Position numbers and translations under genes: made by a program
Assembly (NCBI GenBank): GCA_964575955.1
Contig: CAZNTG010000015.1
Location: 19,943 to 83,942 of the forward strand
Origin: an uncultured Thermoproteaceae archaeon
Lineage (GTDB): Archaea > Thermoproteota > Thermoprotei > Thermoproteales > Thermocladiaceae
Reading direction: 5' to 3'
DNA length: 64,000 nt
Part shown: piece by piece, positions 30,092 to 49,468 of the stretch
Layout of the letters: every line of letters begins with the position of its first letter
How positions within the stretch are numbered: the first letter of the stretch is position 1
Notes under the pieces: generated by a model
Seen by the model: the letters and a program-made list of their open reading frames with translations, nothing else
The model's database searches: none
Told to the model about the DNA's origin: nothing

Positions 30092-30570
30092 AGTTCTATT
30101 AACTTAAGATTAGCATTTCCAGATTCACACTCTACCGATACTATATCCATTTTCTTCCCTATTTGATGTTCTATTACATATTTAACAAACGACGCTACTG
30201 GGCATGGTCTTTTTCCAAACATCTGCTTATAGACATCCCATCTCATCATTACACATCCACACAATCCTTTGAATGTACAATTCTTAACTTCTATAAACAT
30301 CTCTCTACTTCCCATCTTAAAGTTTATATCATCTACGGCTTTGATCTTACTGCTGGTTAACGCTTTCTTAATACTTCCAAGAAGTTTTTCTAAATCTTTA
30401 ACATCTTCTATTAGTCCAGATTCAACAGCAAATCTTGCAGCAAGATCTATAGCTAGCTCTATTATTGAAATCGTTGTCTCTCCACCCATGGCTATGTGTG
30501 CTGCTACTAGTAGTGTTGTTATTGCTAGATCTTTAATATCTTCGACAGGTAGTTGTAGTTGTGAGGTCAT
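30088..30570 (-). CDS. V4R/MetOD1-like Cys-containing domain protein
   Basis: IEVKNCTF..LC...PCPVASF...VEC pattern typical of V4R-like folds. Confidence 0.55.
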   Translation of the reverse strand: MTSQLQLPVEDIKDLAITTLLVAAHIAMGGETTISIIELAIDLAARFAVESGLIEDVKDLEKLLGSIKKALTSSKIKAVDDINFKMGSREMFIEVKNCTFKGLCGCVMMRWDVYKQMFGKRPCPVASFVKYVIEHQIGKKMDIVSVECESGNANLKLIEL

Positions 30571-30583
30571 TATAACACCTGTA

Positions 30584-31000
30584 CTATCTTAGTATTTCTC
30601 TTATTTTTGAAATATATCTATCAAGTTCAAGTAGTATAAGGCCTAGATTTGCATCATTAGGTGTTAATATTCCTATAAATATCTCTCGTGTATCGATGTT
30701 TATCGGTCTTATAATTAACTTACCTGAGTCTCCCTCAATGAGTATTAAACTTACATTACCATTCTTCAACTGTCTAAATATTCTCCTACTGGAACCAACA
30801 GCTGCCGTAACCATTGCAGATATAGCTCTCTCATCCATCCTCTGCTCTCTAACTCTGTATGAGAATATGACTAGTCCATCAGGTCTTGTTATCACTAGAC
30901 CCTCTATATCTGGACTACATCTCGATACGAAATCCCTAGATATCTCTTCTAACTGTCTAGTAACTGCTTCAGGACCACTAAATGGAAGTTCCGTCGACAT
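30584..31000 (-). CDS. Roadblock/LC7 (MglB-like) protein
   Basis: VITRPDGLVI, ISAMVTA, ILIEGDSG and ANLGLILLEL motifs. Confidence 0.9.
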   Translation of the reverse strand: MSTELPFSGPEAVTRQLEEISRDFVSRCSPDIEGLVITRPDGLVIFSYRVREQRMDERAISAMVTAAVGSSRRIFRQLKNGNVSLILIEGDSGKLIIRPINIDTREIFIGILTPNDANLGLILLELDRYISKIREILR

Positions 31001-34424: not shown

Positions 34425-35516
34425 GTGAATGCAAAGAAGTACATTTTGCTTATAATTACTCTAGTTGTTATAATAGCAGTACTCGCATTTTTAACTGTAT
34501 TGAGATATATTAAACAAGGTATATACGTATCTTCACATAAATCTGAGAATGTATTATATAATATTCTTTATGAACTGCTTAAGACTCCAAGTAATGTATC
34601 AATATCATATATGCAATCTTACATAGAAGCATCTTTAAAACTTATTTCAAAAGCCGGCATGCCCTTTAGTGCATATTCGCTCAGACATGTAGTGTTAAAA
34701 TATGTGAATGTCTTTTACACGAAGAAGCCGGGATTTAAAATATTTGGCATTGATGGCAAAGAACTCAACATATGTATAACTAGTAATGTGGGAAGAGAAT
34801 GTACAAATTTTAGCGATTTCATCTACATAATATACATTTCTAATAAAAGTAGTGTTGAATGTTTTAGAGGAAGTGCTACGATATTAATACGCGGTAAGGT
34901 ATATAGATTATCAACACACGGAGTATGTATAACTCTGAGATACAACATTACACCAGATGAATTATATAGAGTATACTTAACATCTTTACGAAATATGCTA
35001 AACTTAGCTAAGTGTTTAGATGGCCTATGTAATCTAAGGGGTACTGTGAATTATGTACACATGCTAAAGTACTATATTACTAGTCAATTAGCTAGATCGA
35101 ATGTAGCTTATGTAGGAATAGTTAAGGTATATAAGGAAAGTAGTAGCTTACTAAAATTGCTTAAGCTCAATCTGTGGAAAATAGATTCCTCCGTGAATGT
35201 AAGTAAACATGAGCTTAGTGCAGAGGGGAAATTATATTCCTTAAGCAAAAATGTTAAGTGTGAAGTAAGCTTCAAGATAGTAGAAAACTATACTCTTACT
35301 AGGAGAATTAATACTAAGTATATACTTTCAATAATTAATAAGATGGAGAGGTTGAATATAAACACATTGTTACTAAAGAAATCTCTAAAAATAAAGTACT
35401 TATTATATGCAATAACACTGTTAAGAAATGTATCCATACCCACACCTCTAGTTAGTGTATACATAATGCCGGCTGAATTATCTCTCCTTATATCCCTACT
35501 GTATAAATACATATAG
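34425..35516 (+). CDS. membrane-anchored or secreted hypothetical protein
   Basis: N-terminal KK plus hydrophobic helix, beta-rich body with Cys pairs and N-x-S/T sequons. Confidence 0.7.
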   Translation: MNAKKYILLIITLVVIIAVLAFLTVLRYIKQGIYVSSHKSENVLYNILYELLKTPSNVSISYMQSYIEASLKLISKAGMPFSAYSLRHVVLKYVNVFYTKKPGFKIFGIDGKELNICITSNVGRECTNFSDFIYIIYISNKSSVECFRGSATILIRGKVYRLSTHGVCITLRYNITPDELYRVYLTSLRNMLNLAKCLDGLCNLRGTVNYVHMLKYYITSQLARSNVAYVGIVKVYKESSSLLKLLKLNLWKIDSSVNVSKHELSAEGKLYSLSKNVKCEVSFKIVENYTLTRRINTKYILSIINKMERLNINTLLLKKSLKIKYLLYAITLLRNVSIPTPLVSVYIMPAELSLLISLLYKYI

Positions 35517-35630
35517 TGTATAAAATTGTAACTCTTCTAAAGTCAACCTCATCACATAGCAACATTCTACTCGAGGAACAAAATAGTAATAAATCTCTAT
35601 ACCGATATAGAAGTTAGAGGTGAAGCATCT

Positions 35631-36008
35631 ATGAATGCTCATAAATTCTCAGATAGAAAGAAGACAGATCTGAGTAATGAGGTCGCTAGAATACTAGACG
35701 ACGTAAAGAAATTCCATGTACATAAGGCTGATGGTACAACTGTAGAGGAGGTTGTTTCAGCACTTCAAGAAGTTGAAAGTGTTATAAAACAGAGGGATTT
35801 CGAGGATAAGACCATGATAACAGAGCTCTCTAAACTAGATTTTGAAGAACTAAGAAGAAAAAGAGATTTTTTGATAACTCAAACAAGAAGTCTACTGAGA
35901 GATATTTATGTACTTTCATCGCAAATACGAAAGAATGTAAGACTTATAAAAATGATAAATAGAATACTTGAAAAGAAACTTCTAGAGAAGAGAAGCAGCG
36001 AGCTGTAA
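35631..36008 (+). CDS. cytoplasmic coiled-coil protein
   Basis: GAGGTGA Shine-Dalgarno upstream; charged heptad-rich sequence without TM helix. Confidence 0.7.
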   Translation: MNAHKFSDRKKTDLSNEVARILDDVKKFHVHKADGTTVEEVVSALQEVESVIKQRDFEDKTMITELSKLDFEELRRKRDFLITQTRSLLRDIYVLSSQIRKNVRLIKMINRILEKKLLEKRSSEL

Positions 36009-36013
36009 ATACA

Positions 36014-36868
36014 TCATGAGATTATAAATTTCACATATTCGTCTTCCTCCGTTGACAGAAAATGTTCTGCTATCTTATGTATTATATCGCTTCTATCATT
36101 CTTGATACAGTACATATAGAGTTCTAGGAAGACCTCAGGTAAATCCTTTTCAACTTCTGCAAACTTTAGTCTTCTATAGTTGATCTTGTATATACTTAAT
36201 CCATATTGCCTTCTTATACTCTCTACTTCTTCATAAACTTCTCTCCGTATGTAATCCATCATAGATAACTTTATCTTGTTTAGTATTACCTTTACATTAG
36301 GCTTTCTATTTAAAAATCGTTCAAGAGCTTCACATTGCTTTTTTAAGTATGCAACATGTTCTTTAACAGGTTCTATGACGAACACTATATCATCAACAAA
36401 CTTCAGTACATTGGCTATGGCTTCATAAAGCCTCATGGATGGTAAGTCAACTATGACAAAGATGTTTCTCTGCTTTAACGCTTGAAATACATCATTGAGA
36501 ATAGAGAAATCCGCCAATTCTTTAAGCTCATCTGGAGATGCATAGCCGGCAGGAATTATTATAAATGGTTTATTGTCGATTTGATATAGTGTTTTCCTGA
36601 TATCGCATTTACCTAACAGGTAATCTAGGAGACCATACCTTCCAGGTTCATTGTGACACGACTTGATTAAATCTCTATAGGATACTTGTCTCGATAATTC
36701 CTGGAGTATTATTCCAATTTGATTCATATCAATGCTTAGATCAACTAAAACGACTTTGTAAGGTATGTCTGGGTTTTCAACTAGTAGTATTGATGTGAAT
36801 ATACTTAGTGTCGTCTTTCCAGTTCCCCCTTTTTCGCCACTATAGAATGCCACAACTTTCGCGCTCAT
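36014..36868 (-). CDS. ParA/MinD-family ATPase 1
   Basis: Deviant Walker A SGEKGGTGKTT, VVLVDL, VIVDLP and VILNK. Confidence 0.88.
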   Translation of the reverse strand: MSAKVVAFYSGEKGGTGKTTLSIFTSILLVENPDIPYKVVLVDLSIDMNQIGIILQELSRQVSYRDLIKSCHNEPGRYGLLDYLLGKCDIRKTLYQIDNKPFIIIPAGYASPDELKELADFSILNDVFQALKQRNIFVIVDLPSMRLYEAIANVLKFVDDIVFVIEPVKEHVAYLKKQCEALERFLNRKPNVKVILNKIKLSMMDYIRREVYEEVESIRRQYGLSIYKINYRRLKFAEVEKDLPEVFLELYMYCIKNDRSDIIHKIAEHFLSTEEDEYVKFIIS

Positions 36869-36931
36869 CTAGAGTAATTGAATTGGAGAAGAGGTTTTAA
36901 TGTGTGTTCGCTTAAACTTAAATATCGAATT

Positions 36932-38365
36932 ATGAAACTGCTTAGAAAAATATACGAATCTCGCACCCGGTATAACTTCAGGACTATATTTGGGAATTCT
37001 ATAACAGTTAGAATAAGTGATGGCATGTATATAGTCGAAGATGAGGAAGAGGAAAAAGTTCCGGAAAGACTATACGAAAAGTATATCATACAGGAAATTA
37101 AACCAAGCCAACTTGTAAGCGATCTTTTAGCAAGAGAGGATTTAACAAGTGCACAAAAGTACTACATCTTCAAGAAGCTAACTTTTGGTATCTTTACAGC
37201 CCCTATATTAGATCCAGAAATAAAAAATATCAATATAAATGATAGATGTTGCATACTAACTCACTCTTTAGGTGATATTATATATGCTGTAAAATATACT
37301 CCGTCGGACGTTGAAAAAGTCAGAGTTGCTCTAGAAAGAGAACTTGAGAAGACATGTTCTCTAACAAATCCTATTCTCGAAGGATCTGTAGCTTTCATAG
37401 ACTTTGTTATGCGTATTAGCGTTACCGCGAGAGGTCTCGGAGTTGCGCCTATGACACAAATATCGATACGTAAGCATGTGAAATCGTACTATACATTAAT
37501 AGACCAAATAAAATCAAAGTTTATCAATACAACCTTGGCCGCATTGCTAGCTCTCAACTGGGCCATGCCAATAAGCGCATCTATGGTTGTATGTGGCCCA
37601 ATGGGAAGTAGAAAAACATCACTATTAGGTTGCTTGATACAATTCGTAGAACCAAACTGTATTGTCGGTATTATTCAAGACGATCCTGAGCTTGATATAC
37701 GTGAGCTACCTGGAATGTATATAGAGTGGCATTGTGCAAGAAAAACTCTCACACATGAGGGAGTGAGAGAAATAAAGTTAGTTGATTTGATATATGCAGC
37801 CTTGAGAAAAAATTATCGAAAAATAATCATTGCAGAGGTTAGAAATCCTGAAGAGATATATGCATACATTCAGCTATTGAAAGTGACGTATGGAGCTGGA
37901 ACAACAATACACGCTCTTAGCATAGATACACTCCAAAAACGTCTTCTATCTGCAAGAGCTGGAGCGTTAACTGTCGATAAATATGATCTAGAACCTATAA
38001 AGATGGCTATCATCTGTGGATTTGCTCAGAGAAAACCTAAACTACTTCAGGTAGCACATGTAGACTTCGTTAAAGAGACGTATACCATGATATCCAAGTT
38101 TGCCGAAGCAGACTGGATAATAGATGAGGAAAAGGTAACTAAGTATGTAAAGGAATTGGCAGATATAAACAATATACCTCAATCTGAAGCTATAGCGCTT
38201 CTAAATGATATAAGAAGATTTCTAGATCTAGCATCAGAGTTAGAGGTCGACCTAGATGCGTATGCATTTAGGAACTACATACTCGACTTGTACAAGTACG
38301 GCTTAGACTACGTTAAGAATGAACTGATTAGACTTATGAGCGAGATAACCGTTATAACTCTGTAA
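36932..38365 (+). CDS. type II/IV secretion (VirB11/TadA/ArlI-like) pilus assembly ATPase
   Basis: PILDPEI..ININ, ISIRK, Walker A GPMGSRKT, Asp box IQDDPEL, ALR..Y..IIIAEVR..E and His box TTIHA; ORF opens at 36878, ATG at 36932. Confidence 0.9.
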   Translation: MKLLRKIYESRTRYNFRTIFGNSITVRISDGMYIVEDEEEEKVPERLYEKYIIQEIKPSQLVSDLLAREDLTSAQKYYIFKKLTFGIFTAPILDPEIKNININDRCCILTHSLGDIIYAVKYTPSDVEKVRVALERELEKTCSLTNPILEGSVAFIDFVMRISVTARGLGVAPMTQISIRKHVKSYYTLIDQIKSKFINTTLAALLALNWAMPISASMVVCGPMGSRKTSLLGCLIQFVEPNCIVGIIQDDPELDIRELPGMYIEWHCARKTLTHEGVREIKLVDLIYAALRKNYRKIIIAEVRNPEEIYAYIQLLKVTYGAGTTIHALSIDTLQKRLLSARAGALTVDKYDLEPIKMAIICGFAQRKPKLLQVAHVDFVKETYTMISKFAEADWIIDEEKVTKYVKELADINNIPQSEAIALLNDIRRFLDLASELEVDLDAYAFRNYILDLYKYGLDYVKNELIRLMSEITVITL

Positions 38366-38946
38366 TGTGGACGCTATATATAGAGGTAGCGGCATTAATA
38401 TTGATCATAGTATTCTCATTAGCAATCTTGTTTATTTACATAGTAAACAATACATACAGTATGATTACATGCTCGTTCGACAAGATTGACATAGTAAATG
38501 TGGGAGAGAGGCTTATAATAACTTCAAGTCCCGAAGATATAGCTGTCCTTATTTACACAATATGTGTTTACTCGATAAATGGGAGCTATGTCTTAAACTA
38601 TACTACTACGACATCGATAACACCTACATATCTACCTTTGCCATCCCGAAACTGTATATATGTAGTATTATCATCTTCAAACTATAATTTAACGTCGGTG
38701 TATACTGGCACACAATCCGGAACTCTTCGTTATACTACATTATATATATCGATGTGCGGCATTCAGTATACCTCACCGGGTTCTGATTGTCAACCTTGGA
38801 TTCTCATCAACATAACATATGATGAAAATGGTTATATAACTAATGTTCAAGTTTTAGACAAAAGTGTCATGTTTACGAAATATTGTGAAGGTATTCCTAT
38901 CCTTTACGAGTGGCTGGGAGGACTTATAAAAGAAGTCGCTAGATAG
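38365..38946 (+). CDS. pilin-like protein (leaderless)
   Basis: N-terminal hydrophobic helix with early Glu (MWTLYIEVAAL), S/T-rich beta domain; coupled to the ATPase stop. Confidence 0.6.
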   Translation: MWTLYIEVAALILIIVFSLAILFIYIVNNTYSMITCSFDKIDIVNVGERLIITSSPEDIAVLIYTICVYSINGSYVLNYTTTTSITPTYLPLPSRNCIYVVLSSSNYNLTSVYTGTQSGTLRYTTLYISMCGIQYTSPGSDCQPWILINITYDENGYITNVQVLDKSVMFTKYCEGIPILYEWLGGLIKEVAR

Positions 38947-38958
38947 TCTACAACAGTA

Positions 38959-39339
38959 ATGTATACTATAATTGATTTACTCTTTGCAGGTCTCATATTT
39001 ATCATTGGCGTAGCAGTGATAATTCTACTTACTATAAGCGGAACTACTATAAACGTGTCATTAGGACAAGGGGTATTAACATGTCTATATAAGTATGTTG
39101 AAAATGGCCTACTAGAAAAACTTCTTGTAGAACATAACTATCTCAGTATTGAGTCCGTGGTTAGAGGTTGCGGAGCAGAAAATGCTATTATAGAGTGCTA
39201 TGACGGAAATTGGCAGCTTATAGAGATATATCCCTCAAACACCATTTTAGGAAAATGTGTTCAATATTTATCTTTAGGTCTCGTTTTTAATACGACAGAG
39301 ATGCAGCGTATTTATGTACTCATCATTTGTATAAAGTAA
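38959..39339 (+). CDS. minor pilin-like protein (leaderless)
   Basis: MYTIIDLLFAGLIFII resembles the T.D..FA..IF N-termini of archaeal minor pilins. Confidence 0.6.
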   Translation: MYTIIDLLFAGLIFIIGVAVIILLTISGTTINVSLGQGVLTCLYKYVENGLLEKLLVEHNYLSIESVVRGCGAENAIIECYDGNWQLIEIYPSNTILGKCVQYLSLGLVFNTTEMQRIYVLIICIK

Positions 39340-39721
39340 TAATCACGTAAAGCTGAGGTTTTCCAGTACCACTTGTAAAGTTATAGTAGGAGTAGCAATG
39401 TATCACGTGAAAACCTTGAGCAATATATAAGTTTCGTGTCTCGGTATACCTTACGTAAGTAACTATATGTACATAATCGGGAAAGGCCACCACTGTCGGA
39501 CCAACTCTCAGCTTATTAAAACTAGGTGTTACAGCTATATTACCACTACTATATACAGCCATGTTAATAGAGGATCCTGGATACTTTATGACAAAATCTA
39601 CGCATTTTACAATGTCAGTCTCAATGTTATAACTGAGTAAAATTTGCTGAACTCCAATAAATATTACACAACACATAATGCAGACAAACAACGTTATCAG
39701 TGCTAACTCGAGGGCATCCAT
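39323..39721 (-). CDS. minor pilin-like protein (leaderless)
   Basis: Start reassigned to MDALELALITLF (ATG 39721), which removes the overlap with the divergent pilin; one N-terminal TM helix. Confidence 0.55.
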   Translation of the reverse strand: MDALELALITLFVCIMCCVIFIGVQQILLSYNIETDIVKCVDFVIKYPGSSINMAVYSSGNIAVTPSFNKLRVGPTVVAFPDYVHIVTYVRYTETRNLYIAQGFHVIHCYSYYNFTSGTGKPQLYVIITLYK

Positions 39722-39764
39722 CAAGTAACCATTAAAAAATTTTGAGAAATTAACGTTTAACAGT

Positions 39765-40346
39765 ATGAAAGAGGTCCGTAAAAGAAACACATTCGGTGGT
39801 ATAAGTACGGTCATAGTAATGGCACTCGTAATTGCAGCAAGTATAGCAATAGCAGTATACTTCATAGCGTACTTCATAGGATTAAGTAGCAGTGTAGCAG
39901 GAACAGCTCAAGCAATAGCAACAGTAGGCAGTTTCTCTACAAGTGGTGTCTCAATAACGGTTAAAAATACCGGCACTGTAGGCATAGAAGGACTTGCCAT
40001 TGAAATTTCAGGAAACGAAACACAATACATAGGAGTCTATTTTAAGAACGGTACGAACTATCTATCAATAGGTTCAGGAAACACTATTACTATCTTCTGT
40101 CAACCAACAACAACGGGTCTCAATTGTACGGCCTCAACATCTCAGCCCGGTATCACAGGATCTATTATAAAAGTCTTCGTAGCGAATGGAACTCCACCCT
40201 CAACATTTAGTGATCTAATTTCCTCAACTAGTACAAATACTATACTCGAGATTAATGCAGGCCAGACATATAAGGTGTCAGTGTTAGTTTACTACGCGAA
40301 TGGAAAGACTCAGTTATTAGCTTTAGGCACATACACGGCCTCTTAG
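39765..40346 (+). CDS. archaeal type IV pilin (probable major pilin)
   Basis: Class III signal MKEVRKRNTFGG|ISTVIVMALVIA, ITVKNTG strand, AGQTYKVSV..NG C-terminus, S/T/G-rich. Confidence 0.85.
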   Translation: MKEVRKRNTFGGISTVIVMALVIAASIAIAVYFIAYFIGLSSSVAGTAQAIATVGSFSTSGVSITVKNTGTVGIEGLAIEISGNETQYIGVYFKNGTNYLSIGSGNTITIFCQPTTTGLNCTASTSQPGITGSIIKVFVANGTPPSTFSDLISSTSTNTILEINAGQTYKVSVLVYYANGKTQLLALGTYTAS

Positions 40347-40471
40347 ACTTAGGTCTTTTCCAATCTCAAAATACCTCACTCTCTAGATTTCTTTCTTACA
40401 CCTTCTGTCTTCTAATCTGTTCTCTTTAGATACTACATTGCTTTACATAAAGTAATTTTTTTAGTTATTAG

Positions 40472-41035
40472 TTGATTGTTATTAAAGATAGTCGTATGGG
40501 TTTTAGTTATGTTATAGTAATGGCGCTCGTGATTGTAGCATGTATATGCATCACGATCTATGTCCTTTCAATTATTCTACCCCCCTATATGAATCTTATC
40601 TCGTCTTACTCGGACTTTGTAGTTACATCGTACTACTTATCTTCCAAGTTTATTGAGGTTTCTATCAAGAATGTGGGTAGTATGCCCATAGTATCCATAA
40701 ATATAACAGTGGTAAATACAACAGGAGCAGATATTCTAAATATTAATTTTGGTCAAGATAATTTTGAAATACCTAGACAAGTCTCAGTATCATGTAGTTG
40801 TATTTTTAGCAGCTCCTGGTATTGTGAATGCATACCATCTACAGCAGTTAACACTAGTTCCTCTTTATATGCCTGTACTCCATCATCATCATCGATTTCT
40901 GAACATCTCTGTACTATTGAAATAGCTAACGATAAACCACTTACACCTGGGTACGTTTATAGGATATATATTTACGTTAAATTTAAAAATGGACTTATTA
41001 AAGCGAGAAGCTTAAGTATGGTTGCGTCATCTTAG
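40472..41035 (+). CDS. archaeal type IV pilin, paralog of 39765-40346
   Basis: KDSRMG|FSYVIVMALVI, SIKNVG and LTPGYVYRIYI..KNG. Confidence 0.8.
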   Translation: MIVIKDSRMGFSYVIVMALVIVACICITIYVLSIILPPYMNLISSYSDFVVTSYYLSSKFIEVSIKNVGSMPIVSINITVVNTTGADILNINFGQDNFEIPRQVSVSCSCIFSSSWYCECIPSTAVNTSSSLYACTPSSSSISEHLCTIEIANDKPLTPGYVYRIYIYVKFKNGLIKARSLSMVASS

Positions 41036-41041
41036 ACCATA

Positions 41042-42493
41042 ATGGGCTTTATTGAGAATGTGTGCGCTATAGTTGGCTGCTCTAGAGATAGTGTCAGTAA
41101 GGAGATCCTCATTATAGTAACCTCAATAGTACTGACTGTAGTCATATCGATATTACTAATCTTTATATCAGTTAGGATTCCTAGACTTAAACCAATTCTA
41201 GCAATCGTACCTCTTCTCTTTACTATTCCGACTTTGTCTATCTCCAGATGTAAGTGTATATTAGAGTACCTAAAGTTCACAAGCAGTCTAGGTAGAGAAG
41301 AACTCTATGCATGTGTAGCTATACTGGTACTTTCACTACTTGGCTCATGGAATTATGTCTCAAGGGTGCTACAACACGGATTTCCAGCAACAGCACGTGT
41401 ACTAAGAAGTAAATCAAACATAGGTTCAAAATTGTTCAAAGAAGTCAAAGACATAGTCGAAAACATAGTATTCAAGGATGGTACTCTACCACATGTAGCA
41501 CGTGAGAGAATAATGCATACACTTAGAATGAGTATAGAAGATTATGGAACTCTTACTCAAATTCTCATAACTGGCTTAGCAATGCTCTATATGTTTTTCA
41601 TAGTAATTTCATTTTTAAGTTTCATGTCCCCTATGTTTAACCCCTCCATGTTCGTATTTATTGTAACTTTTCTAACATTTATATTCTCCGCATTAATAAT
41701 GTCGAAATCCCCTATTCACGATTATGCCATTACCGAATTGAAGGAAAAAATTAAGTTAATACTACCGACGAGCATAATTGTGTTCATAATATCTCTTATA
41801 GTAATACATGATTTTTCGATATCAGCTCACATACTACTCATATCGTTTTTTATATTAGGCTTAGCATTGCTAAAATGTTCCAGGAAAATAGATAAGATAG
41901 ATAATGCTGTCGTATGGGATAGAGTTCTAAATCTTAGACTTATCAAAGGTGTACCTGTTGATCAGGCACTTCAAACTATTCTTGGTAGAGATGTTTACGA
42001 GATATATACAAGAACTTATCCGTTTAATGCAATAAAAAACCTCTTAACACATCTCGAAGATATTGGCGGACTTGGCATAGTTAGGATGTTTAGAGAGATG
42101 ATCGTGGAGATATTTAATGCTATGAACAAGGTTATGAAAAACGTTAAAGTTAATGTGTTGATGCTCGTAGGATTTGCATTAGCTATGATAGGTATGCAGA
42201 TATGGTTTGTAACGCTTCTATTACCTGCATTAAAGATGATGAAAATGTTCGGTTTTAGTTTAACCTCAGTTCCAGCATATACAAATTTGCCGATTCAGAT
42301 GTCCCCCGAAGCGATAGTACAATCATTAAATACAACAATAACATACGTACCCCCAATAGTAACACTTGCAGTATTTATGATAATGCGAGGTTGTAGTAGT
42401 AGCACCAGAGCTATGAAAATAGCACTAGTTACAGCAATAGTATTACTATGTACTCAAGTAATAGTGAAATACTTTATAGTGCCGCACCTATAA
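41042..42493 (+). CDS. TadC/ArlJ-like pilus membrane platform protein
   Basis: Two repeats of cytoplasmic helical domain plus TM bundle (T2SS F-like layout) inside the pilus cluster. Confidence 0.7.
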   Translation: MGFIENVCAIVGCSRDSVSKEILIIVTSIVLTVVISILLIFISVRIPRLKPILAIVPLLFTIPTLSISRCKCILEYLKFTSSLGREELYACVAILVLSLLGSWNYVSRVLQHGFPATARVLRSKSNIGSKLFKEVKDIVENIVFKDGTLPHVARERIMHTLRMSIEDYGTLTQILITGLAMLYMFFIVISFLSFMSPMFNPSMFVFIVTFLTFIFSALIMSKSPIHDYAITELKEKIKLILPTSIIVFIISLIVIHDFSISAHILLISFFILGLALLKCSRKIDKIDNAVVWDRVLNLRLIKGVPVDQALQTILGRDVYEIYTRTYPFNAIKNLLTHLEDIGGLGIVRMFREMIVEIFNAMNKVMKNVKVNVLMLVGFALAMIGMQIWFVTLLLPALKMMKMFGFSLTSVPAYTNLPIQMSPEAIVQSLNTTITYVPPIVTLAVFMIMRGCSSSTRAMKIALVTAIVLLCTQVIVKYFIVPHL

Positions 42494-42506
42494 AATATTC
42501 CAAGAA

Positions 42507-42836
42507 ATGCCTACTCCGGCTATAGTATACGCCATAGTGACTATCGGATTAATATCGATATGTCTATTTCTGATATACACTATGTTAGTACATAAGCTTG
42601 TTTTAAATAATAGCATTGTCGTTCTAGACTACTATGTCAGAATTGATAGATATGCAGTACTTAAGGTATCATCTAACACTAGCGTGTATGTTAAGGAAAA
42701 ACCGAATTCGTGCACGATTATAAAACCCAGCAGTGATACTGTCTATGTAATCTGTGACTGCAGATACATGAATAATACGACGTTAGTTATATGTGGAGGA
42801 AAATTCTGTAAAGCATTCTTTGTATGGTGTAAATAA
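42507..42836 (+). CDS. pilin-like protein (leaderless)
   Basis: MPTPAIVYAIVTIG N-terminal helix and small Cys-rich beta domain. Confidence 0.6.
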   Translation: MPTPAIVYAIVTIGLISICLFLIYTMLVHKLVLNNSIVVLDYYVRIDRYAVLKVSSNTSVYVKEKPNSCTIIKPSSDTVYVICDCRYMNNTTLVICGGKFCKAFFVWCK

Positions 42837-43492
42837 TGAGACTTACGTTAGCAACTTTCATAATAATGTTGACAATAATTCTAGCAATAATCTTTATTAA
42901 GTACAGACCGAACCCTATCTACTACATATCGCTTGAGAAATACTATGCTGCAGATGCACATTGTACAGCATGGGCATATTTAACAAATCAAAGCTTTGCA
43001 GAATGTCTAGATACTTTCCTATTAAGAGCTAATTCAAACATTATATATAGTATTATATTGACCAAATATCGATACGATACTGTGCTAGAGAAGTTAAATC
43101 TTCAATTGTTGAGGGAAAAGTGTGTGGATATGTATAGCATACTCACTTCGTTAATTACTTTAAGTAACGAAGGCTATATCGTAGTGAATGCCTTGAGCTA
43201 CAAATATTATAATGGTACGCTATGTCTAAATAGGCCTAAGATATGTTTAAGCTACTGTGCATATATGCTTGTCATCAAGGTAAAGCCTGGTATATACTAC
43301 GTATTCACCGATAGAGCATTACTTAGTATAAACGTAACAGTCACTAGTACGAGTAATGTCGTATGTACATACAGTAGGACATTACTCATGAGTTTAAACA
43401 TGTCAGCAATAGTTATTAAATGCAGTTCTGAAACTACAAATTACAAAATTGAAATTATTGATGAAAGAGGTATTAACGTTACTATAAGCTAG
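42836..43492 (+). CDS. membrane-anchored pilus-associated protein
   Basis: N-terminal TM helix, sequons, C-terminal IEIIDERGI motif; TAATG coupling to the upstream gene. Confidence 0.6.
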   Translation: MRLTLATFIIMLTIILAIIFIKYRPNPIYYISLEKYYAADAHCTAWAYLTNQSFAECLDTFLLRANSNIIYSIILTKYRYDTVLEKLNLQLLREKCVDMYSILTSLITLSNEGYIVVNALSYKYYNGTLCLNRPKICLSYCAYMLVIKVKPGIYYVFTDRALLSINVTVTSTSNVVCTYSRTLLMSLNMSAIVIKCSSETTNYKIEIIDERGINVTIS

Positions 43493-44246
43493 TGGTCTCT
43501 TTTAAACCCTCCATTTCTAATATCTTCTCAACAAGTCTTTTTAGATACCCACGCTTTACTATATACTGTGCCACTGTTAGAGGACTTTTCTCATCTTTAA
43601 CTACATCTAATTCTGGCACTATTGTAATATCCAGATCTTTAAGCTCTGAAGGGTCTATATTGAATAGCTTTTTAACAGTCTTGCTATCATACTTGACATT
43701 ACTAGGCCACATATTTAACACGTATAGGACTCCTATAACCTTCTCTTCTACTTTTATGGACTTCCCTATTTTACTTATCTCCTTAAGTATCCTCATGTAT
43801 GGTCTAAGTACCACAACAAGACAATCACAGATTTTTAGACACTTTTTAATACTAGTTTCTTCAATATATGTTGGAAAATCTATTATAGCGAACTTGACCT
43901 CCCTCTTTAATCTCCTATTTATTATTTCCACTATAGCCCTTATACTGTCTATCAATCTATCATTCATGTGGTCAATGTATGGCAACTGTATTGCCGTGCT
44001 TAATGATTGCTCTTCTAAAACATTTAATCTCTTTCTCTCTATACCAACTACTATGAGGTTGCCAAATATTTTTGCTCGAGGAAGTTCCATCATAGTTGAG
44101 CTTTTTAAAAGTTCATATATATGGGAACTATCGAAAAGTATCGAAAGGTCGTACTTACTAAATTCTGTAGCAAGAGCCAGCGCAATCGTGCTCTTACCTA
44201 CTCCACCAATGCCAAAACTAGTCACTCCTACAAACTTGGTCGGCAT
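43482..44246 (-). CDS. ParA/MinD-family ATPase 2 (signature Lys absent)
   Basis: TSFGIGGVGKST, AIIDFP, CDCLVVV and YVLNM. Confidence 0.82.
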   Translation of the reverse strand: MPTKFVGVTSFGIGGVGKSTIALALATEFSKYDLSILFDSSHIYELLKSSTMMELPRAKIFGNLIVVGIERKRLNVLEEQSLSTAIQLPYIDHMNDRLIDSIRAIVEIINRRLKREVKFAIIDFPTYIEETSIKKCLKICDCLVVVLRPYMRILKEISKIGKSIKVEEKVIGVLYVLNMWPSNVKYDSKTVKKLFNIDPSELKDLDITIVPELDVVKDEKSPLTVAQYIVKRGYLKRLVEKILEMEGLKETTSL

Positions 44247-44381
44247 ATTTCACTAAAACTATATCCTTTCATACTCCTTAAAATATATTTAACTTGTATG
44301 GAGTTATACTGCTAAGATTGGGAATCGTATAATGAGATTAGTATTTTAAACCCGGATCTAGCTGTAACTATAGGGGGTGCG

Positions 44382-47123
44382 ATGCTTACACGTAAAATCT
44401 ACGTAATACTACTATTAGTAACTGTGATGTCCTGTATATTAACACTAGTCACCGCATATGGCTACACATTATCAAGATTTGCTAAAGTGATACCAGTGCC
44501 TAAAACCTATAAGCCATATCCAAATTACAGAAGCATATATTTTAAACAGATATCATACGTTAAAGTTATAGGAAACGTATCCTCGAACGAACCCGGAACA
44601 TATTGTATAGACTTATCGAGTTACGTTAGAAATATACCACAGATTAGGAGAATACTGAACAGATTAGAACGTGCTGGATTTATCATAGACTTTAACGTAG
44701 AGCTATGTACGGAGTCGAGCAGACCCAAGACGATAGTATATCTCAACAATGTGAAATATATGTTAAATTCGACAGGATTTTTAAGATTAGCCGATGTTGG
44801 TGGAAAAGTTGTGAGAATTCTAAATATAGAAGGTGCTAACACGTATTTAAAGATATATGTGTTAGCAATAGATTGGTATAGTGTATTTGAGGGACAGACT
44901 TACATAACACTATCCGAGGCAAAGACATACATAGGAAAGTCAGGATTGCTAAAAGGCTACGTCTTCACAACGGCATCGTATCCTCTAGACATACTTGACC
45001 TAGTACTAGCCGTAGTTAATAAGTATTCTGGATATGACTTTTGGGGGCTTATAACTAGAGAACTATTATTACGCTTGATAGTTCTCGACTACATACTGCT
45101 TGTTGGAAGTATAGGTTATAAGACCAGAACTATATCTGGCGCATGTTTAGGTAACATATGTGTAGTATGTAACTCCTCATGGAGCTTATTTAACTCGCTC
45201 AAGAATCTAGAGGAAGCTTTAATGAATCCTACTAAATTGATTAGAGGTTTATACTCGTCATCTTCTACATGTAAGATAGTGAATATAACGTCTGGTAAAA
45301 TAGTCCCTATAAATCAGACTACGAATTTGACTATTCTCATAAAGGAGGTGTACTGTGGACTTGAACATAGCCAAAAGATAAGCCTAATTATACCGTCATG
45401 TAATAAATACTGGTGCATTGTCGGATTCGAAGAGAATTATCCAGTTAAAGAACTTGACCTTAAAAATGTTCATTCAAGGGTGTTTGTGTTCTATACACTT
45501 ATACCAGAGAAAACGTTCGTAAAAATTTCAAAGTTGTATAATGTAACACTCGCAGCATATGAATACGCATACGTATACTATAATTATACACACAGCATAT
45601 TAGTGCAACCTATTGTTGAAATAGAGGAACCATATCTATCGAACTCTACGATTAAGTACAGAATAGTTACAAAAACCGTAAGTCTATCACCTCTAGCAGC
45701 ATATATAGAGGAGAATAACACGCCAATATATAAGGCTGGGTTAACATACACTATATATAACATCAAGAATGGGGAAAATGTCGACATAGTATTGCCAATC
45801 GAGTTTAACATATATCACAACTTGACCGTGAATAGTATGTTGTTTAGAGTGAAGTATCTATGTACATTTAATAACGTAAATATCGGCACGCCCAACGTAA
45901 GTGAGAGTAGTGTCGACATATCTATACACAATGTTACTAGAGACATTATAGTTAAACCGCTATATGTCTGCAGACCGCTGGTACCAATACCATATATTGC
46001 AAGTCTAAATTGTCCTACAATGTACATACCTGGAAAACCTATAGACATAACCGCACATGTAGTGAACCTAGGATCTAACGGTACAGTGACGCTAAGCTTA
46101 CTTGACAACGGGAAGTACACTATAGAAGTCAAGAATATAACACTAATTCAAGGTTCTTCCGCAGACATTACATTTACACTAACATTTAGTGATAAGGAAG
46201 TGCACTACCTATATATCATTAGTGGAAACACAACTTTAGCAATGTGTTCTATAAGACCAACATCTATAACGAGTGTATATCTGAAGATAATTCCGATATC
46301 ATCAATAACAAGTATAGAAGACCTACTTAGAAGTATTTTAGAAAACTACAATAGTATAAATATATCCAATATATCTTATATTAAAGGTGCAAAGATAGTA
46401 TCCGTACTGATAGTTGTCAACAATACTCTAGGAAGTATAGCTAATGCATCTGTAATCATAAATGGAGAAACAATTCCTTTAAGATGCAAAGACTTGTCAA
46501 CAGATATTTTACTATGCAATCTTGAACAACCTGTAATACTAATCAATAAGACAGAGTTAATACTCGAATTTACAACAACTAACGGAAATACTGTGTACTC
46601 AAATACTGTCACAATTACTCCAACAACCCAAGTTAATATAACTAAGATAATTACTGATTGGGTTGGTGCAAACGAATTAAGAATAGTGATAATTGCTAAT
46701 GGACTTAATCTCGTAACAGTGCCAGCAACTATAGTTGGACCTGGATTATACATGTCTATGCCTATTACATTTAATAGTTCGGGAATCGGTGTAATCAACG
46801 TAACTCTTAATGAACCGCTACTGCCAGGCGATAATATAAACATAACTATTCACACCCCAGCAAAAGTTGTATCATCAAGCTTGAAAGCTGTACTTATTAA
46901 ACCGAAAATAATAGCGGAGAACATCACATTTGAGTACCAGAATAATACTATACCTAAGTGTACTTTAGTAATCCCACGATTAAATCTTGTTAACGAAGTT
47001 ACAAATTGTACTTTCAGTAGCAAATTGCTAGAGTATACGCCAATTATAGTACTTCCTGAAGGATGTGAAGGTGTTATATGCCTACCGTATAAGATCCTTA
47101 CAATAATAGTAAGACCGAGCTGA
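44382..47123 (+). CDS. large secreted adhesin-like protein with Ig/CARDB-like repeats
   Basis: Signal peptide, 913 aa, PGKPIDITAHVVNLG...ITFTLTF CARDB-like segment, many N-x-S/T sequons; GGGGGTG Shine-Dalgarno. Confidence 0.7.
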   Translation: MLTRKIYVILLLVTVMSCILTLVTAYGYTLSRFAKVIPVPKTYKPYPNYRSIYFKQISYVKVIGNVSSNEPGTYCIDLSSYVRNIPQIRRILNRLERAGFIIDFNVELCTESSRPKTIVYLNNVKYMLNSTGFLRLADVGGKVVRILNIEGANTYLKIYVLAIDWYSVFEGQTYITLSEAKTYIGKSGLLKGYVFTTASYPLDILDLVLAVVNKYSGYDFWGLITRELLLRLIVLDYILLVGSIGYKTRTISGACLGNICVVCNSSWSLFNSLKNLEEALMNPTKLIRGLYSSSSTCKIVNITSGKIVPINQTTNLTILIKEVYCGLEHSQKISLIIPSCNKYWCIVGFEENYPVKELDLKNVHSRVFVFYTLIPEKTFVKISKLYNVTLAAYEYAYVYYNYTHSILVQPIVEIEEPYLSNSTIKYRIVTKTVSLSPLAAYIEENNTPIYKAGLTYTIYNIKNGENVDIVLPIEFNIYHNLTVNSMLFRVKYLCTFNNVNIGTPNVSESSVDISIHNVTRDIIVKPLYVCRPLVPIPYIASLNCPTMYIPGKPIDITAHVVNLGSNGTVTLSLLDNGKYTIEVKNITLIQGSSADITFTLTFSDKEVHYLYIISGNTTLAMCSIRPTSITSVYLKIIPISSITSIEDLLRSILENYNSINISNISYIKGAKIVSVLIVVNNTLGSIANASVIINGETIPLRCKDLSTDILLCNLEQPVILINKTELILEFTTTNGNTVYSNTVTITPTTQVNITKIITDWVGANELRIVIIANGLNLVTVPATIVGPGLYMSMPITFNSSGIGVINVTLNEPLLPGDNINITIHTPAKVVSSSLKAVLIKPKIIAENITFEYQNNTIPKCTLVIPRLNLVNEVTNCTFSSKLLEYTPIIVLPEGCEGVICLPYKILTIIVRPS

Positions 47124-47139
47124 TATCAAAAACATAGTT

Positions 47140-47460
47140 CTACTTAGATCTTTCCCTTAAAAATCTATATATCTTTTTTGGACTGTCTTTACTAATCTTT
47201 TTCTCATTCTTCTTTTCTGCCTTAGTACTACCTTTAGTTTTTAAGAATATTTTAAAAATATTGAATTTTAGTTTACATCTATTGCTTGAAGTCTTTCTTC
47301 TCTGATTAATCTTAAGCTCTTTTTTACGCCTATCTCGCTTCTTTCTGTATCTTAATCTCTGTTTGTGTTTTCGTTGTACGTTTATGACGAATTTTATAAA
47401 TTTTTCAGGATCAATGTTGTTTAACTTAACCTTCTTCTCCTTGATCTTTTCTTGCGGCAT
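47140..47460 (-). CDS. extremely basic K/R-rich small protein
   Basis: 106 aa from MPQEK (ATG 47460); fills the gap on a purine-rich strand; divergent from 47502. Confidence 0.5.
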   Translation of the reverse strand: MPQEKIKEKKVKLNNIDPEKFIKFVINVQRKHKQRLRYRKKRDRRKKELKINQRRKTSSNRCKLKFNIFKIFLKTKGSTKAEKKNEKKISKDSPKKIYRFLRERSK

Positions 47461-47501
47461 ATACGTAAATGTTGTTAAACACTTAATTAACATATTTGTT
47501 A

Positions 47502-47822
47502 ATGAGACTAGGTAAGTCAAAGAAGGATAAGGAGGAGAATATAGAAGAATCTCTTGCTGCGGATATTCAACAGATTGGGCTATCTTGCGATGAGTTAGTA
47601 CTTGATACTTTAAGTCTGCTATCTGAATGTTTGAAATGCTTATCTGAGAAGATTATTGAGAGTTTGAGGTTAAACATAGTAGATATAAAGCTTACTGAAA
47701 GAGACATAGCATTACTTAAACAAGCATTATCAACATTAGAAACCGCGGAGAAAGAGATAGAGGCTTACATACGTAAACTGAGAAATAGAATAGAAGAACT
47801 ATCTAAGAGATGTACCTCATAG
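47502..47822 (+). CDS. cytoplasmic coiled-coil protein
   Basis: Helical heptad pattern, basic N-terminus, no TM helix. Confidence 0.65.
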   Translation: MRLGKSKKDKEENIEESLAADIQQIGLSCDELVLDTLSLLSECLKCLSEKIIESLRLNIVDIKLTERDIALLKQALSTLETAEKEIEAYIRKLRNRIEELSKRCTS

Positions 47823-47829
47823 TGAAGCA

Positions 47830-48447
47830 ATGGAGGCTATCATGACTGCGATTGTTGCTATCATAATGATTGCCGTTGGAATTATAGCTTTTTCAGCACT
47901 CTATGGAATCATTAAAACATCTTATGAGACGCTTTGGGAAAAGATGCTCATCTTTGAACTAGATACTCTACTTAGTGGTATATCTGTCAGAGTGAAGATA
48001 CCATATCCTCTGGTACAGGTAGATTATAATTACACAGTCAATATAGTGTACCTTGCAAATACCACAAACATCACACTATCAATACATAACGTTCTAGCAT
48101 ATCAGTCCAACGCATTTTCAAATGGAAAATGTACTGCATACATAAGACCTTGGTTAAAAATGGGATCGGCATGTATTAATATAACATTTTATAATATTAC
48201 GTGTACAGACATTAAGAAATGTCTTTCTCAAAATACCAACACATGTATAATCAGGATATACTCCTTGTGGAGTGGTATAGGTTTAGAGGGCTATATAAGA
48301 GCAACCACGAGAACTATAGTGTTCTTTGGAGGAACTGTAAATATAACATCAGACTATTTGAGTCTATGCGGTCTTAAGGATGAGGTAACTCTAAGAAATA
48401 AAACCATCATTATTGAAGTGATATTCTATAAGCAAGAAACATCATGA
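47830..48447 (+). CDS. pilin-like protein (leaderless)
   Basis: MEAIMTAIVAIIMIAVG N-terminal helix and beta domain with sequons. Confidence 0.62.
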   Translation: MEAIMTAIVAIIMIAVGIIAFSALYGIIKTSYETLWEKMLIFELDTLLSGISVRVKIPYPLVQVDYNYTVNIVYLANTTNITLSIHNVLAYQSNAFSNGKCTAYIRPWLKMGSACINITFYNITCTDIKKCLSQNTNTCIIRIYSLWSGIGLEGYIRATTRTIVFFGGTVNITSDYLSLCGLKDEVTLRNKTIIIEVIFYKQETS

Positions 48448-49077
48448 ACTTCCAAGGAGAGATGATAGATCGAGTTCTTCTTCTTTTTCTTTCCTCTCCT
48501 CAGCATGTTCTGATTTTTTACTTTGCTCTACTGCAGACGTTGTTTTATGAGCATATGATTCTGACAATTTAGAATCTATTATCTTATACATTATTTTTAT
48601 TATCTCGATAAGATCTTCTTTTTCAAGCTTTGATAATGCCTTGAATAGTAAATCTCTCGTTTTCTGATCTCTTACAGATTTATCAACTAGATACTCGAGA
48701 AACTCTGTCTTAAAGACCTCAAACAAGTTAGATACCGAGCCCATGTCTAGAGTATCTGACATGATGGGTTTATCTGTTTTTGCTTCTAACTTTTCACTCG
48801 ATTCTGTCTGGCTTTTTATTACATTTGTTTCTTTACTTTTTATCTCACTACTACTCTCTTCAATACTTACCATCTCTTTCTCCTCCTCCACGGATACCGG
48901 TGCCGGTTCTTCCTTCTTCTCTTCTTTAGGGGTACTCGAAAGTACTAGCTGTTCTGCTCTAGCTTCTTCGAGTCCCTGAAATACATCATGTAATTCTTGG
49001 ACCAGCTTATCACCTTCAGATTCACTTCTCTCCTTTTTCTGCCTTGAAAATAGAGAACGAAATCTCTCTGTCACCAT
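48442..49077 (-). CDS. acidic, partly disordered cytoplasmic protein
   Basis: E/K/S-rich linkers, amphipathic N-terminus ERFRSLFSR, short helical domain, tail EEELDLSSLL. Confidence 0.7.
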   Translation of the reverse strand: MVTERFRSLFSRQKKERSESEGDKLVQELHDVFQGLEEARAEQLVLSSTPKEEKKEEPAPVSVEEEKEMVSIEESSSEIKSKETNVIKSQTESSEKLEAKTDKPIMSDTLDMGSVSNLFEVFKTEFLEYLVDKSVRDQKTRDLLFKALSKLEKEDLIEIIKIMYKIIDSKLSESYAHKTTSAVEQSKKSEHAEERKEKEEELDLSSLLGSS

Positions 49078-49111
49078 GTTTAAAATTAGCTTTACGAAAT
49101 ATTAATACGTT

Positions 49112-49468
49112 ATGAGATATGCCGTAATTTATACGCTCATACTAATTTCGTTCATAGCAGTATCGATATACGTATCATACTGCATAATGCATATAGGAAT
49201 GTCATCAGAAAGGCACTATAGCATTATGACGACTCTACAATGTTTATATAGTAGAAGTATTTGTATAACAACAGAGCCGGTTAAAGTATTAAGTATTAAC
49301 TTAACAACACCTATAGGTATAGAAAGCATACACATAATAGCTATAGGAGGCATATACTTAATAGTGCCAACAAACGTGAAAACATCCGGAGAGAATTGTA
49401 CAAAACCTCCATGTATAATCATAAATACACTAAAAGAAATTAAAGTAGAAGAATTATCTACAAGTTAG
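49112..49468 (+). CDS. pilin-like or membrane-anchored small protein
   Basis: N-terminal TM helix and Cys pairs. Confidence 0.55.
   Translation: MRYAVIYTLILISFIAVSIYVSYCIMHIGMSSERHYSIMTTLQCLYSRSICITTEPVKVLSINLTTPIGIESIHIIAIGGIYLIVPTNVKTSGENCTKPPCIIINTLKEIKVEELSTS

Follow-up and report, generated by a model that had tools for sequence, protein, structure and literature searches.

A 4G-like type IV pilus cassette with two MinD-type ATPases of different origins in an uncultured Thermoproteales archaeon

We examined a window of 64 kb from the genome of an uncultured Thermoproteaceae archaeon (GTDB family Thermocladiaceae; assembly GCA_964575955.1, contig CAZNTG010000015.1) and found that an island of 19 genes at 34425..49468 encodes the parts of a type IV pilus together with two ParA/MinD ATPases, here named MinD1 and MinD2, and four small cytoplasmic proteins. 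The MinD and small genes accompany the pilus genes in congeners and in one more distant locus, and MinD1 has element-borne relatives. We read the island as a horizontally acquired, now resident cassette resembling subclade 4G of the archaeal type IV pili, which would make a cell-contact or adhesion filament and in which MinD1 and one small protein, the 48442 protein, would bias the place or number of the machines; we put the probability of this reading at about 45%. Genes are named by their left-end coordinate within the window. The source genome (G000; the window lies on its contig C15) measures 1.52 Mb at 95% completeness, six congeners are labeled G001 to G006, and retrieved loci carry L-numbers. 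The window is fully contained in one sequencing run labeled as hydrothermal vent metagenome, and no RNA data set was listed as containing it.

Family searches recovered both ParA/MinD proteins that a previous sequence-only reading of the window had proposed. MinD1 (36014..36868, minus strand) matches AAA_31 (E = 7e-7), and MinD2 (43482..44246, minus strand) matches ParA_partition (E = 3e-6) and, under the cut-off, CbiA (E = 9e-4). The deviant Walker A motif with its signature lysine, which defines ParA/MinD proteins in the available text of PMC7182216, is intact in MinD1 and its relatives (10 of 10 alignment rows). MinD2 carries an isoleucine at the place of this lysine, a loss that the sequence-only reading had missed, along with a Walker A substitution in the pilus ATPase and the anchoring of the 34425 protein at both ends. 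The example of McdA, given in the same text, indicates that proteins without the signature lysine may stay active (PMC7182216). The lysine is also absent from Pyrobaculum-type 4G MinDs (L085 to L087) and from the MinDs of two other pilus loci (L027 and L061), so Lys-less MinDs appear to recur beside these pilus motors, though the tree leaves them ungrouped.

In the tree, MinD1 and MinD2 are not sisters, and an origin of both by duplication was rejected on this ground. MinD1 falls into a clade (96/96) with forms from short contigs and from an element on contig C8 of the same genome, the C8 form being its closest non-orthologous relative, and it is not sister to the MinD of a Ted-like module in this genome. 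MinD2 is unplaced and shows 18 to 20% identity to the Pyrobaculum-type 4G MinD (arCOG05608 type). Since MinD1 and MinD2 differ in both kind and origin, they do not make up the one dedicated module that had been proposed, and polar placement or control of pilus number would at most be plausible roles. The MinD tree has no reliable root and gives no direction of transfer. Both genes do lie on the strand opposite to the motor gene, as had been pointed out, but this is no mark of design: strand changes occur in 10 of 18 adjacent island pairs versus 661 of 1,487 across the genome (mechanical open reading frame [ORF] calls), and the minus strand of the island is also used by the pilin-like gene 39323.

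Co-conservation was observed in the host genus. The left part of the cassette, from the 34425 gene onward to the contig ends, is syntenic in three of the six congeners (G001, G002, and G004), and the right part is found in G001 (contig C8, with a second partial copy on C62) and on two contigs of G002; all congener contigs break within the cassette, and their flanks differ from those in G000. G003 yielded a MinD2 fragment only, and G005 and G006 (85 to 87% complete) gave no match with the queries used. MinD1 and the ATPase are 82% and 81 to 82% identical to their congener forms, against a background median of 68 to 69%, and the surface proteins are 23 to 51% identical. For MinD2, the N-terminal 26 residues recur with 88% identity at two G002 contig ends beside the adhesin gene, and the C-terminal part with 48% in G003. 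The right half or the adhesin gene exists in two divergent copies per genome in G001 (L163 and L115) and G002 (L082 and L084), by either duplication or strain mixture.

A more distant relative, L175, encodes an ATPase with 64% and a MinD1 with 37% identity. Its gene order is permuted, with the right-end block immediately before the 35631-MinD1-ATPase block, and all strands are kept. Besides the ATPase and MinD1, sequence or profile matches were obtained for 38365 (E = 1.8e-4), 38959 (1e-14), 49112 (1e-10), 47496 (1e-5), and 47140 (7e-6), and weak ones for 35631 (E = 0.044) and 47830; the adhesin counterpart is positional only. L175 is a contig of 7,956 bases in a record titled as a bacterial metagenome-assembled genome and is most likely archaeal DNA placed in the wrong bin. 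Homologues of the ATPase, MinD1, and 48442 also turned up in two other sets on equal-sized contigs (47,148 and 15,331 bases), which suggests linkage. The MinD and small genes thus travel with the pilus genes, and the separation of the two that would speak against a joint system was not found. In the searches made, the cassette appears genus-restricted: no close ATPase relative was detected in 400 other genomes of the phylum (best hit, 104.5 bits, the level of any pilus ATPase, versus 894 bits for self), metagenome scans with the ATPase gave no confirmed relative, and 120 genomes of the class, searched with the 48442 profile, gave 3 matches, each in the host genus. MinD1 pattern loci numbered four in a collection of 185,579 genomes (three congeners and L175). 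For MinD2, 62 genomes of the order gave 4 matches, of which one is probably an Mrp-type protein.

The motor of the island is a single pilus assembly ATPase of FlaI/TadA type (36878..38365, plus strand; probable start at ~36929 from homologues), in agreement with the sequence-only reading. It scored above the cut-off of Pfam T2SSE (E = 1.6e-6), and its closest solved structures are 2OAP and FlaI (E of ~1e-22). Compared with 2OAP, the glycine before the Walker A lysine is replaced by arginine and the first Asp-box glutamate by glutamine, both without exception in 10 of 10 alignment rows, and the first His-box histidine is missing in the island orthologues. Literature on the roles of the Asp-box residues was sought and not found. 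The Walker A arginine is confined to the island ATPase clade (6 of 55 rows); the loss of the first Asp-box glutamate is shared with Vulcanisaeta-type 4G and Ted-linked ATPases, and the Pro-Met-Gly Walker A with Vulcanisaeta-type 4G ATPases. The Walker A lysine, Walker B glutamate, and second histidine are invariant. Judged from these alignments, the strong conservation of the ATPase argues for function, possibly with an unusual rate of hydrolysis. A lone paralogue of this ATPase (26% identity) is encoded at C7:15516-16712 (L028:10466-11785); its Walker A is further degenerate, pilus neighbors are absent, and its codon G+C content is native (0.17).

The 41042 protein (41042..42493, plus strand) had been called a TadC-like platform. 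Pfam and PDB searches with it were blank, but a FlaJ-type profile was matched (hhalign probability of 73, E = 3e-5, 154 columns; the single profile match), and its model is an all-helical membrane protein (predicted local distance difference test [pLDDT] score of 84.7). Position, model, and profile match make it a candidate for a diverged TadC/FlaJ-like platform. Its family has six representatives among 1.84 billion proteins, and no internal repeat was detected. Fold searches with the platform model, as with that of the 48442 protein, returned generic helical matches only, which says nothing on the absence of a fold.

Candidate major pilin 1 (39765..40346) and its paralogue, candidate major pilin 2 (40472..41035), both on the plus strand, had been described as class III pilins. 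Their pilin nature stood, since both reach canonical archaeal pilins by profile iteration. They are PilA/UpsA-like, with an UpsA match of E = 0.03 for the 39765 protein and a homologue of the 40472 protein in a pilus locus on G002:C90, and their genes have a 48-nucleotide repeat (79%) in common. The class III label is less secure: neither protein matched a FlaFind-type class III pattern in our own implementation, so we only infer that they are processed as prepilins at noncanonical sites. The genome encodes one prepilin peptidase, outside the island. Seven small proteins, about the number named before, are anchored N-terminally and carry 5 to 8 cysteines apiece.

The 48442 protein (48442..49077, minus strand), correctly noted as acidic (isoelectric point [pI] of 4.9), belongs to a family of 14 members with long and short forms. 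Its model consists of an N-terminal helix, a disordered linker, and a C-terminal helical domain. Co-folding, proposed earlier as a check, was run for the MinD1 dimer with ATP, Mg, and the 48442 protein and gave a score of 0.48 (runs, 0.22, 0.52, and 0.48), with controls at 0.00 (best of three), contacts agreeing in at least 62%, and a partner pLDDT of ~50. In the calibration of this score, 116 of the 157 solved pairs passed the mark, as did 2 of the 215 mismatched ones; the band up to 0.60 holds 18 of these solved pairs and both mismatches, and the prediction therefore lends weak support. The pair had been picked beforehand from its co-occurrence on C8, which raises the odds modestly. On this basis, 48442 is a weakly supported candidate partner of MinD1. 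Many ParA/MinD partners work via their N-terminal region according to the accessible part of PMC11407121. A MinE-like N-terminal amphipathic helix was considered for 48442 and not used, as its moment of 0.60 ranks only at about the 75th percentile of 852 soluble ORFs. An acidic stretch followed by Asp-Leu-Ser, possibly a docking peptide, is located at the C terminus of the long forms and near the N terminus of the short forms.

The inventory of the island is largely that of subclade 4G of the Thermoproteales (Makarova et al. 2016, PMC4858521), which the main text of that paper describes as highly complex and evolving extremely fast. Its components are given there as a diverged ATPase, a diverged TadC, pilins of the PilA family, two large proteins, a pair of small alpha-helical proteins inside the cell, and, in every 4G system, a FleN/MinD ATPase, together with conserved cysteines. 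An Ig fold of the 4G adhesin is added by PMC13705601, which, in the part available, repeats this description. The combination of a MinD and small helical proteins within a complex pilus locus of the Thermoproteales therefore repeats the published 4G description and is not a new idea. The island resembles 4G so described in its complexity, the diverged ATPase, the single candidate for a diverged TadC, the PilA-like pilin and many Cys-rich minor pilins, the adhesin of ~1,000 residues, the C-terminally anchored protein (34425, the analogue of an S-layer-like component), and the presence of a MinD-type ATPase and small helical proteins; the Pyrobaculum-type MinD shares with MinD2 the missing lysine. 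Gene sets from the same family and order have the order and lengths of the published Vulcanisaeta and Pyrobaculum loci, which places the host probably in the Thermoproteales, and relatives carry the source names Crenarchaeota or Thermoproteota; our comparison covered 60 of the 192 "subclade_4G" supplement rows of PMC4858521, and the labels 4A, 4B, 4D, 4E, TedA-like, and TedC-like used for loci are our own assignments from gene order and size. In contrast to 4G, the island holds two unrelated MinDs (one MinD beside the ATPase in each 4G-pattern locus examined) and four small cytoplasmic proteins, has no TedC/TedA-like genes, and shows signs of acquisition; its ATPase sits on its own long branch with the Walker A G-to-R change, and its accessory proteins lack clear homology. 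What sets the cassette apart is its two MinD types, its restriction to one genus in the searches made, and its likely descent from a mobile element. No paper on this cassette, or on a locus of this kind with two MinDs, came up in literature searches, which did not cover supplementary figures. The earlier view of an uncharacterized contact or adhesion pilus with co-conserved MinD and small genes is supported.

The sequence comparisons neither support nor reject membership of 4G by descent. In the ATPase phylogeny that had been suggested as a check, the island ATPases make up a separate branch (95.9/96) in a region of long branches, and 4G-pattern ATPases are not one clade (FastTree; IQ-TREE LG+F+G4). 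Approximately unbiased (AU) tests (fast searches, 29/49 rows, 5,000 replicates) did not reject a union of the island ATPases with 4G (P = 0.46 and 0.63), nor did they reject the control, a union with 4B (P = 0.30), and the test is consequently of little power. An hhalign comparison of 10 island proteins with 32 small profiles gave nothing above a probability of 32; 47830, 48442, 49112, and four large adhesin profiles lay outside it. No 4G profile matched 35631, 47140, or 47496, the profiles being shallow, and 48442 was compared with one family only. Weak matches to 4G pilins comprised two against an arCOG05618-pattern pilin (E = 5e-4 and 7e-4, 32 comparisons each), with E = 5e-4 for the 38365 protein. 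In a control within 4G, platform against platform reached E = 0.31, i.e., 4G platforms fail to match each other. The arCOG10497 and arCOG10500 membrane proteins of the Vulcanisaeta/Caldivirga 4G form are not encoded in the island; look-alikes are present elsewhere in G000. We read arCOG10500 and arCOG10497 as TedC and TedA by size, topology, and order only.

Several lines of evidence suggest horizontal acquisition. The third-codon-position G+C content of the island is 0.31 versus a genome median of 0.20 (1,225 windows), the second highest stretch, and falls to ~0.2 among the genes on either side. Elevated values were also seen in the C8 element and in blocks with CRISPR- and restriction-like ORFs. 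The C8 element (G000:C8:35962-58727; L030 and L091) reaches the contig end, has a G+C content of 0.42 to 0.51 from 36 kb onward versus 0.33 for the genome, and carries KaiC-like, ParB-N, helicase, and GmrSD-domain genes. Within 4 kb, its left edge holds a MinD1 relative (33% identity), a short 48442 form, and an internally deleted VirB4-like gene, a relic of 217 codons. The C-terminal 59 residues of the relic correspond to the end of a VirB4-like ATPase encoded on G002:C80, where a short 48442 form lies 1.9 kb from that ATPase. The closest sister pilus locus, on G002:C90 (L027; ATPase 35%, TadC 24%, Lys-less MinD 27%, and a pilin) adjoins a VirB4 gene. Precedent comes from thaumarchaeal integrative and conjugative elements (ICEs; Krupovic et al. 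2019), which, in the available text of PMC6563490, carry TadC, FlaI/PilT, and pilins beside VirB4/VirD4; the island differs from them in that VirB4 is absent, an integrase and edge repeats were not seen, and it is apparently fixed in its species. A second metagenome contained the island nearly identically with the same flanks, so it looks fixed. Descent of the cassette from a mobile element is likely.

From the observed gene content, co-conservation, motifs, and element-borne relatives, we infer filament formation, roles for both MinDs, positioning, and a function, which the preferred reading of a resident, acquired 4G-like pilus would join as follows. Assembly would take place at the TadC-like platform and be driven by the ATPase; both PilA-like pilins, cleaved by the genome's single prepilin peptidase encoded elsewhere, would form the shaft; and the seven Cys-rich minor pilins and the 913-residue adhesin would supply base and tip, with their fast divergence setting recognition. 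MinD2, without the signature lysine, might serve as a largely static adaptor for recruiting or licensing the motor, a role that has been proposed for bacterial TadZ, the Walker A of which is degenerate. MinD1, as an intact ATP-sandwich dimer, would cycle with 48442 as activator or cargo adaptor and thereby bias the site or the number of the machines. A conjugative element that has since lost its transfer genes would be the source of the pair and probably of the cassette as a whole. Positioning is in our view the likeliest single role for a predicted MinD1-48442 pair, with a role in DNA transfer as a serious rival. Polar positioning is plausible by analogy: bacterial Tad (TadZ/CpaE) and ParA/MinD cargo pairs likewise show a MinD-like ATPase in a pilus locus and N-terminal partner action (PMC11407121, in the part available), and the Haloferax MinD is stated in the accessible text of PMC13705601 to position the archaellum. 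Polar localization was demonstrated experimentally in those systems and is presumed here.

A number of observations weigh against this reading. Motor activity is uncertain because the ATPase motifs are atypical; the 48442 gene lies 11.6 kb away from MinD1 in the window, and its L175 counterpart is positional, without a profile match. Outside a pilus locus, MinD1-like and short 48442 genes co-occur in one independent case (C8); on the G002:C80 contig, which is 4.7 kb long, no MinD was seen. MinD2 and the Pyrobaculum-type 4G MinD stay apart in the tree. High identity to congeners is not special to MinD1 and the ATPase, as a level of 80% or more is also reached by 17 of 42 background genes in the comparison with G001. 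With regard to acquisition, the third-codon contrast is weaker in G001 and G002 and disappears in G004 (0.449 versus 0.457), total G+C content is unremarkable (13% of 268 windows are as high), no integrase was found among the ORFs scanned and no edge repeats among the 20 largest direct-repeat families listed, and two metagenomes yielded no junction that bypasses the island.

The observed links to transfer systems also allow the filament to be a mating-pair pilus, joining cells for Ted-type or element-encoded transfer in trans, as Ups does for Ced, with MinD1 and 48442 (and the basic 47140 protein) delivering DNA or a transfer complex to the contact site in the manner of VirC1. The 4G-pattern loci L056 and L057 contain membrane genes of TedC/TedA size alongside a MinD, a pair of small genes, and a membrane ATPase resembling HerA, like modules occur in G000, VirB4 adjoins the sister locus on G002:C90, and very divergent surface proteins suit partner recognition. 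The Ted MinD is itself read as VirC1-like (Beltran et al. 2023, PMC9905601, in the part available), and given the affinities to conjugative-type elements, such a role for MinD1 would be an equally standard analogy. The Ted module resembles the element-borne relative of MinD1 in linking a Lys-bearing MinD and small partner genes to a VirB4/HerA-like ATPase, within the same archaeal order. On the other hand, transfer genes, TedA, TedB, and TedC among them, are absent from the island, the filament would be a type IV pilus, the Ted module has its own MinD to which MinD1 is not sister, and the TedC/TedA reading has the basis given above. We regard this explanation as doubtful, though serious. The VirB4-element link also points to a possible mating or contact role for 4G-like pili, as a counterpart of Ups, which P. 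calidifontis is said to lack in the available text of PMC9905601. Rather unlikely, in our estimate, is a plain, fast-evolving 4G orthologue in which the MinDs and small proteins are FlhG- or ArlH-like regulators of assembly or expression without spatial patterning and the element copies were taken from the chromosome. The inventory agrees with it point by point, divergence of 4G parts beyond recognition is reported and matches the platform control, the ATPase has the Walker A and Asp-box features of the Vulcanisaeta type, the AU tests leave the grouping unrejected, and the unrooted MinD tree would allow transfer in that direction; the separate ATPase branch, the single MinD of the 4G-pattern loci examined, the third-codon G+C content, and the changed flanks speak against it, and the AU test has low power.

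A short pseudopilus or a secretion or anchoring device (bindosome-like) that displays the 913-residue protein with a slow or altered ATPase is very unlikely. The invariant Walker A and Asp-box substitutions, the absent histidine, the noncanonical pilin cleavage sites, and the further degenerate paralogue at C7:15.5 kb would fit such a device, but the invariant catalytic residues and strong conservation of the ATPase do not, and two PilA-like paralogues with seven minor pilins suit a filament. An improbable extension of the preferred reading is a two-tier relay in a domesticated conjugative pilus: MinD1 and a MinE/ParB-like 48442 would pattern the rod membrane and hand the position to a TadZ-like MinD2 docking the motor, for partner-specific mating with Ted transfer in trans. 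If true, it would provide a named ATPase-activator pair for MinD positioning in Thermoproteota and a traceable path from a mobile element to a cell-polarity device. The value of the cassette lies in telling apart two MinD types that are found one at a time elsewhere and in pointing to a specific candidate partner, 48442, of one type. The 4G MinD genes were catalogued in 2016, and a 2026 survey (PMC13705601) still reports no test of them in its available text; for MinD1-48442, ATPase stimulation and membrane patterning are assayable in vitro, with culture of the host unneeded.

Of the machines noted earlier as not seen, archaellin was confirmed as missing from the genome and a VirB4/HerA gene as missing from the island. 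No PF01917 match for archaellin was found in the 95% complete genome (controls positive in 4 of 14), and an archaellin query was blank; ArlH-like matches occur only outside the island, and ArlF/G were not searched separately. None of the island ORFs is a VirB4/HerA gene (DUF87 matches number six in G000 and none on C15), and VirB6- or VirB2-like ORFs were found neither in the island ORF list nor in family searches. A PHROGs scan of eight island proteins gave just ParA-like matches and one low-complexity match, viral scans yielded one distant ParA in a contig of 65% G+C and no match for 48442, and a sigma-70 promoter scan, by a model unsuited to archaea, was below chance. Crenactin goes with rod shape. 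Since G000 encodes a crenactin (61% identity over 428 residues to a protein above the NCBIfam cut-off), the cell is probably a rod, as had been assumed.

The island is bounded on the left by the gene of a surface protein of 363 residues (34425..35516, plus strand) with membrane anchors at positions 7 and 342 and 7 cysteines; its orthologues in G001, G002, and G004 are 23 to 26% identical. A cytoplasmic helical protein of 125 residues follows (35631..36008, plus strand), convergent with MinD1 and present at the same position in three congeners with 47 to 54% identity. The putative minor pilins on the plus strand are 38365..38946 (193 residues, N-terminal transmembrane segment, 6 cysteines; 37% identity in G001 and G004), 38959..39339 (126 residues; topology and cysteine survey, homologues in congeners and L175), 42507..42836 (109 residues, N-terminal transmembrane segment, 7 cysteines), 42836..43492 (218 residues, N-terminal transmembrane segment, 8 cysteines), 47830..48447 (205 residues; topology and cysteine survey, congeners), and, at the right edge, 49112..49468 (118 residues; 45 to 51% identity in G001, and L175). 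For 42507 and 42836, no homologue was found among the retrieved loci. The remaining one lies on the minus strand at 39323..39721 (~132 residues); its ORF as listed reaches 39877 and overlaps the next gene, and a G004 homologue (37%) starting at the matching methionine indicates a true start at ~39721.

The secreted adhesin-like protein of 913 residues (44382..47123, plus strand) contains 20 cysteines and 28 N-glycosylation sequons. The protein itself is as described before, whereas the Ig-rich character attributed to it found weak support, namely an Ig_VWA7 match of E = 0.015 and ESM Atlas neighbors that are mostly Ig-repeat surface proteins with template modeling scores by query below 0.3. 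A Diphtheria_R Pfam match (E = 3e-4, under the cut-off, 63 residues) was taken to reflect a beta-sandwich in general. Usable feature matches in the Atlas were obtained neither for the adhesin nor for 48442, phmmer gave no match to arCOG05616, and adhesin orthologues are 32% identical in G002 and 25% (partial) in G001. Downstream are the very basic small protein noted earlier (47140..47520, minus strand; pI of 11.1, probable start at ~47457 judged from homologues), which has relatives in G001, G002, and L175, and a helical cytoplasmic protein of 108 residues (47496..47822, plus strand) with two copies in G001 (49 to 50% identity) and a relative in L175.

Elsewhere in the genome and its relatives, further loci of related kind were observed. 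A Ted-like system of G000 is split into three pieces: C6:81-85 kb (L032), with a 2-transmembrane-segment gene and an 825-residue membrane protein back to back with a pilus ATPase; C10:6281-9842 (L111), with a MinD, proteins of 99 and 124 residues, and a 696-residue HerA-like membrane ATPase (E = 1e-89 to the L056 protein); and C7:115047-115544, with a TedA-like gene. Beside the pilus loci L056, L061, L067, and L032 are genes for proteins of 800 to 1,400 residues that start with some five membrane helices and lack a Pfam match, three of the four near small 2-transmembrane-segment genes; those of L056 and L061 are homologous (E = 3e-33). L027 on G002:C90 also contains a MoxR-like AAA gene and is a candidate conjugative element with its own type IV pilus. 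At G000:C6:407034-407469, a broken middle part of a VirB4-like gene lies beside a block of restriction- and CRISPR-like genes with high third-codon G+C content. Additional complex pilus loci with long ATPases of 626 to 928 residues are found in the same genus and order (L073 and L093 in G006 and G003, L094 in G002, L152, and L153), on separate long branches where placed. Outside the island, at 30088-31000 of the window, a Roadblock/LC7 gene adjoins a gene for an unknown protein of 160 residues, a small signaling-like pair.

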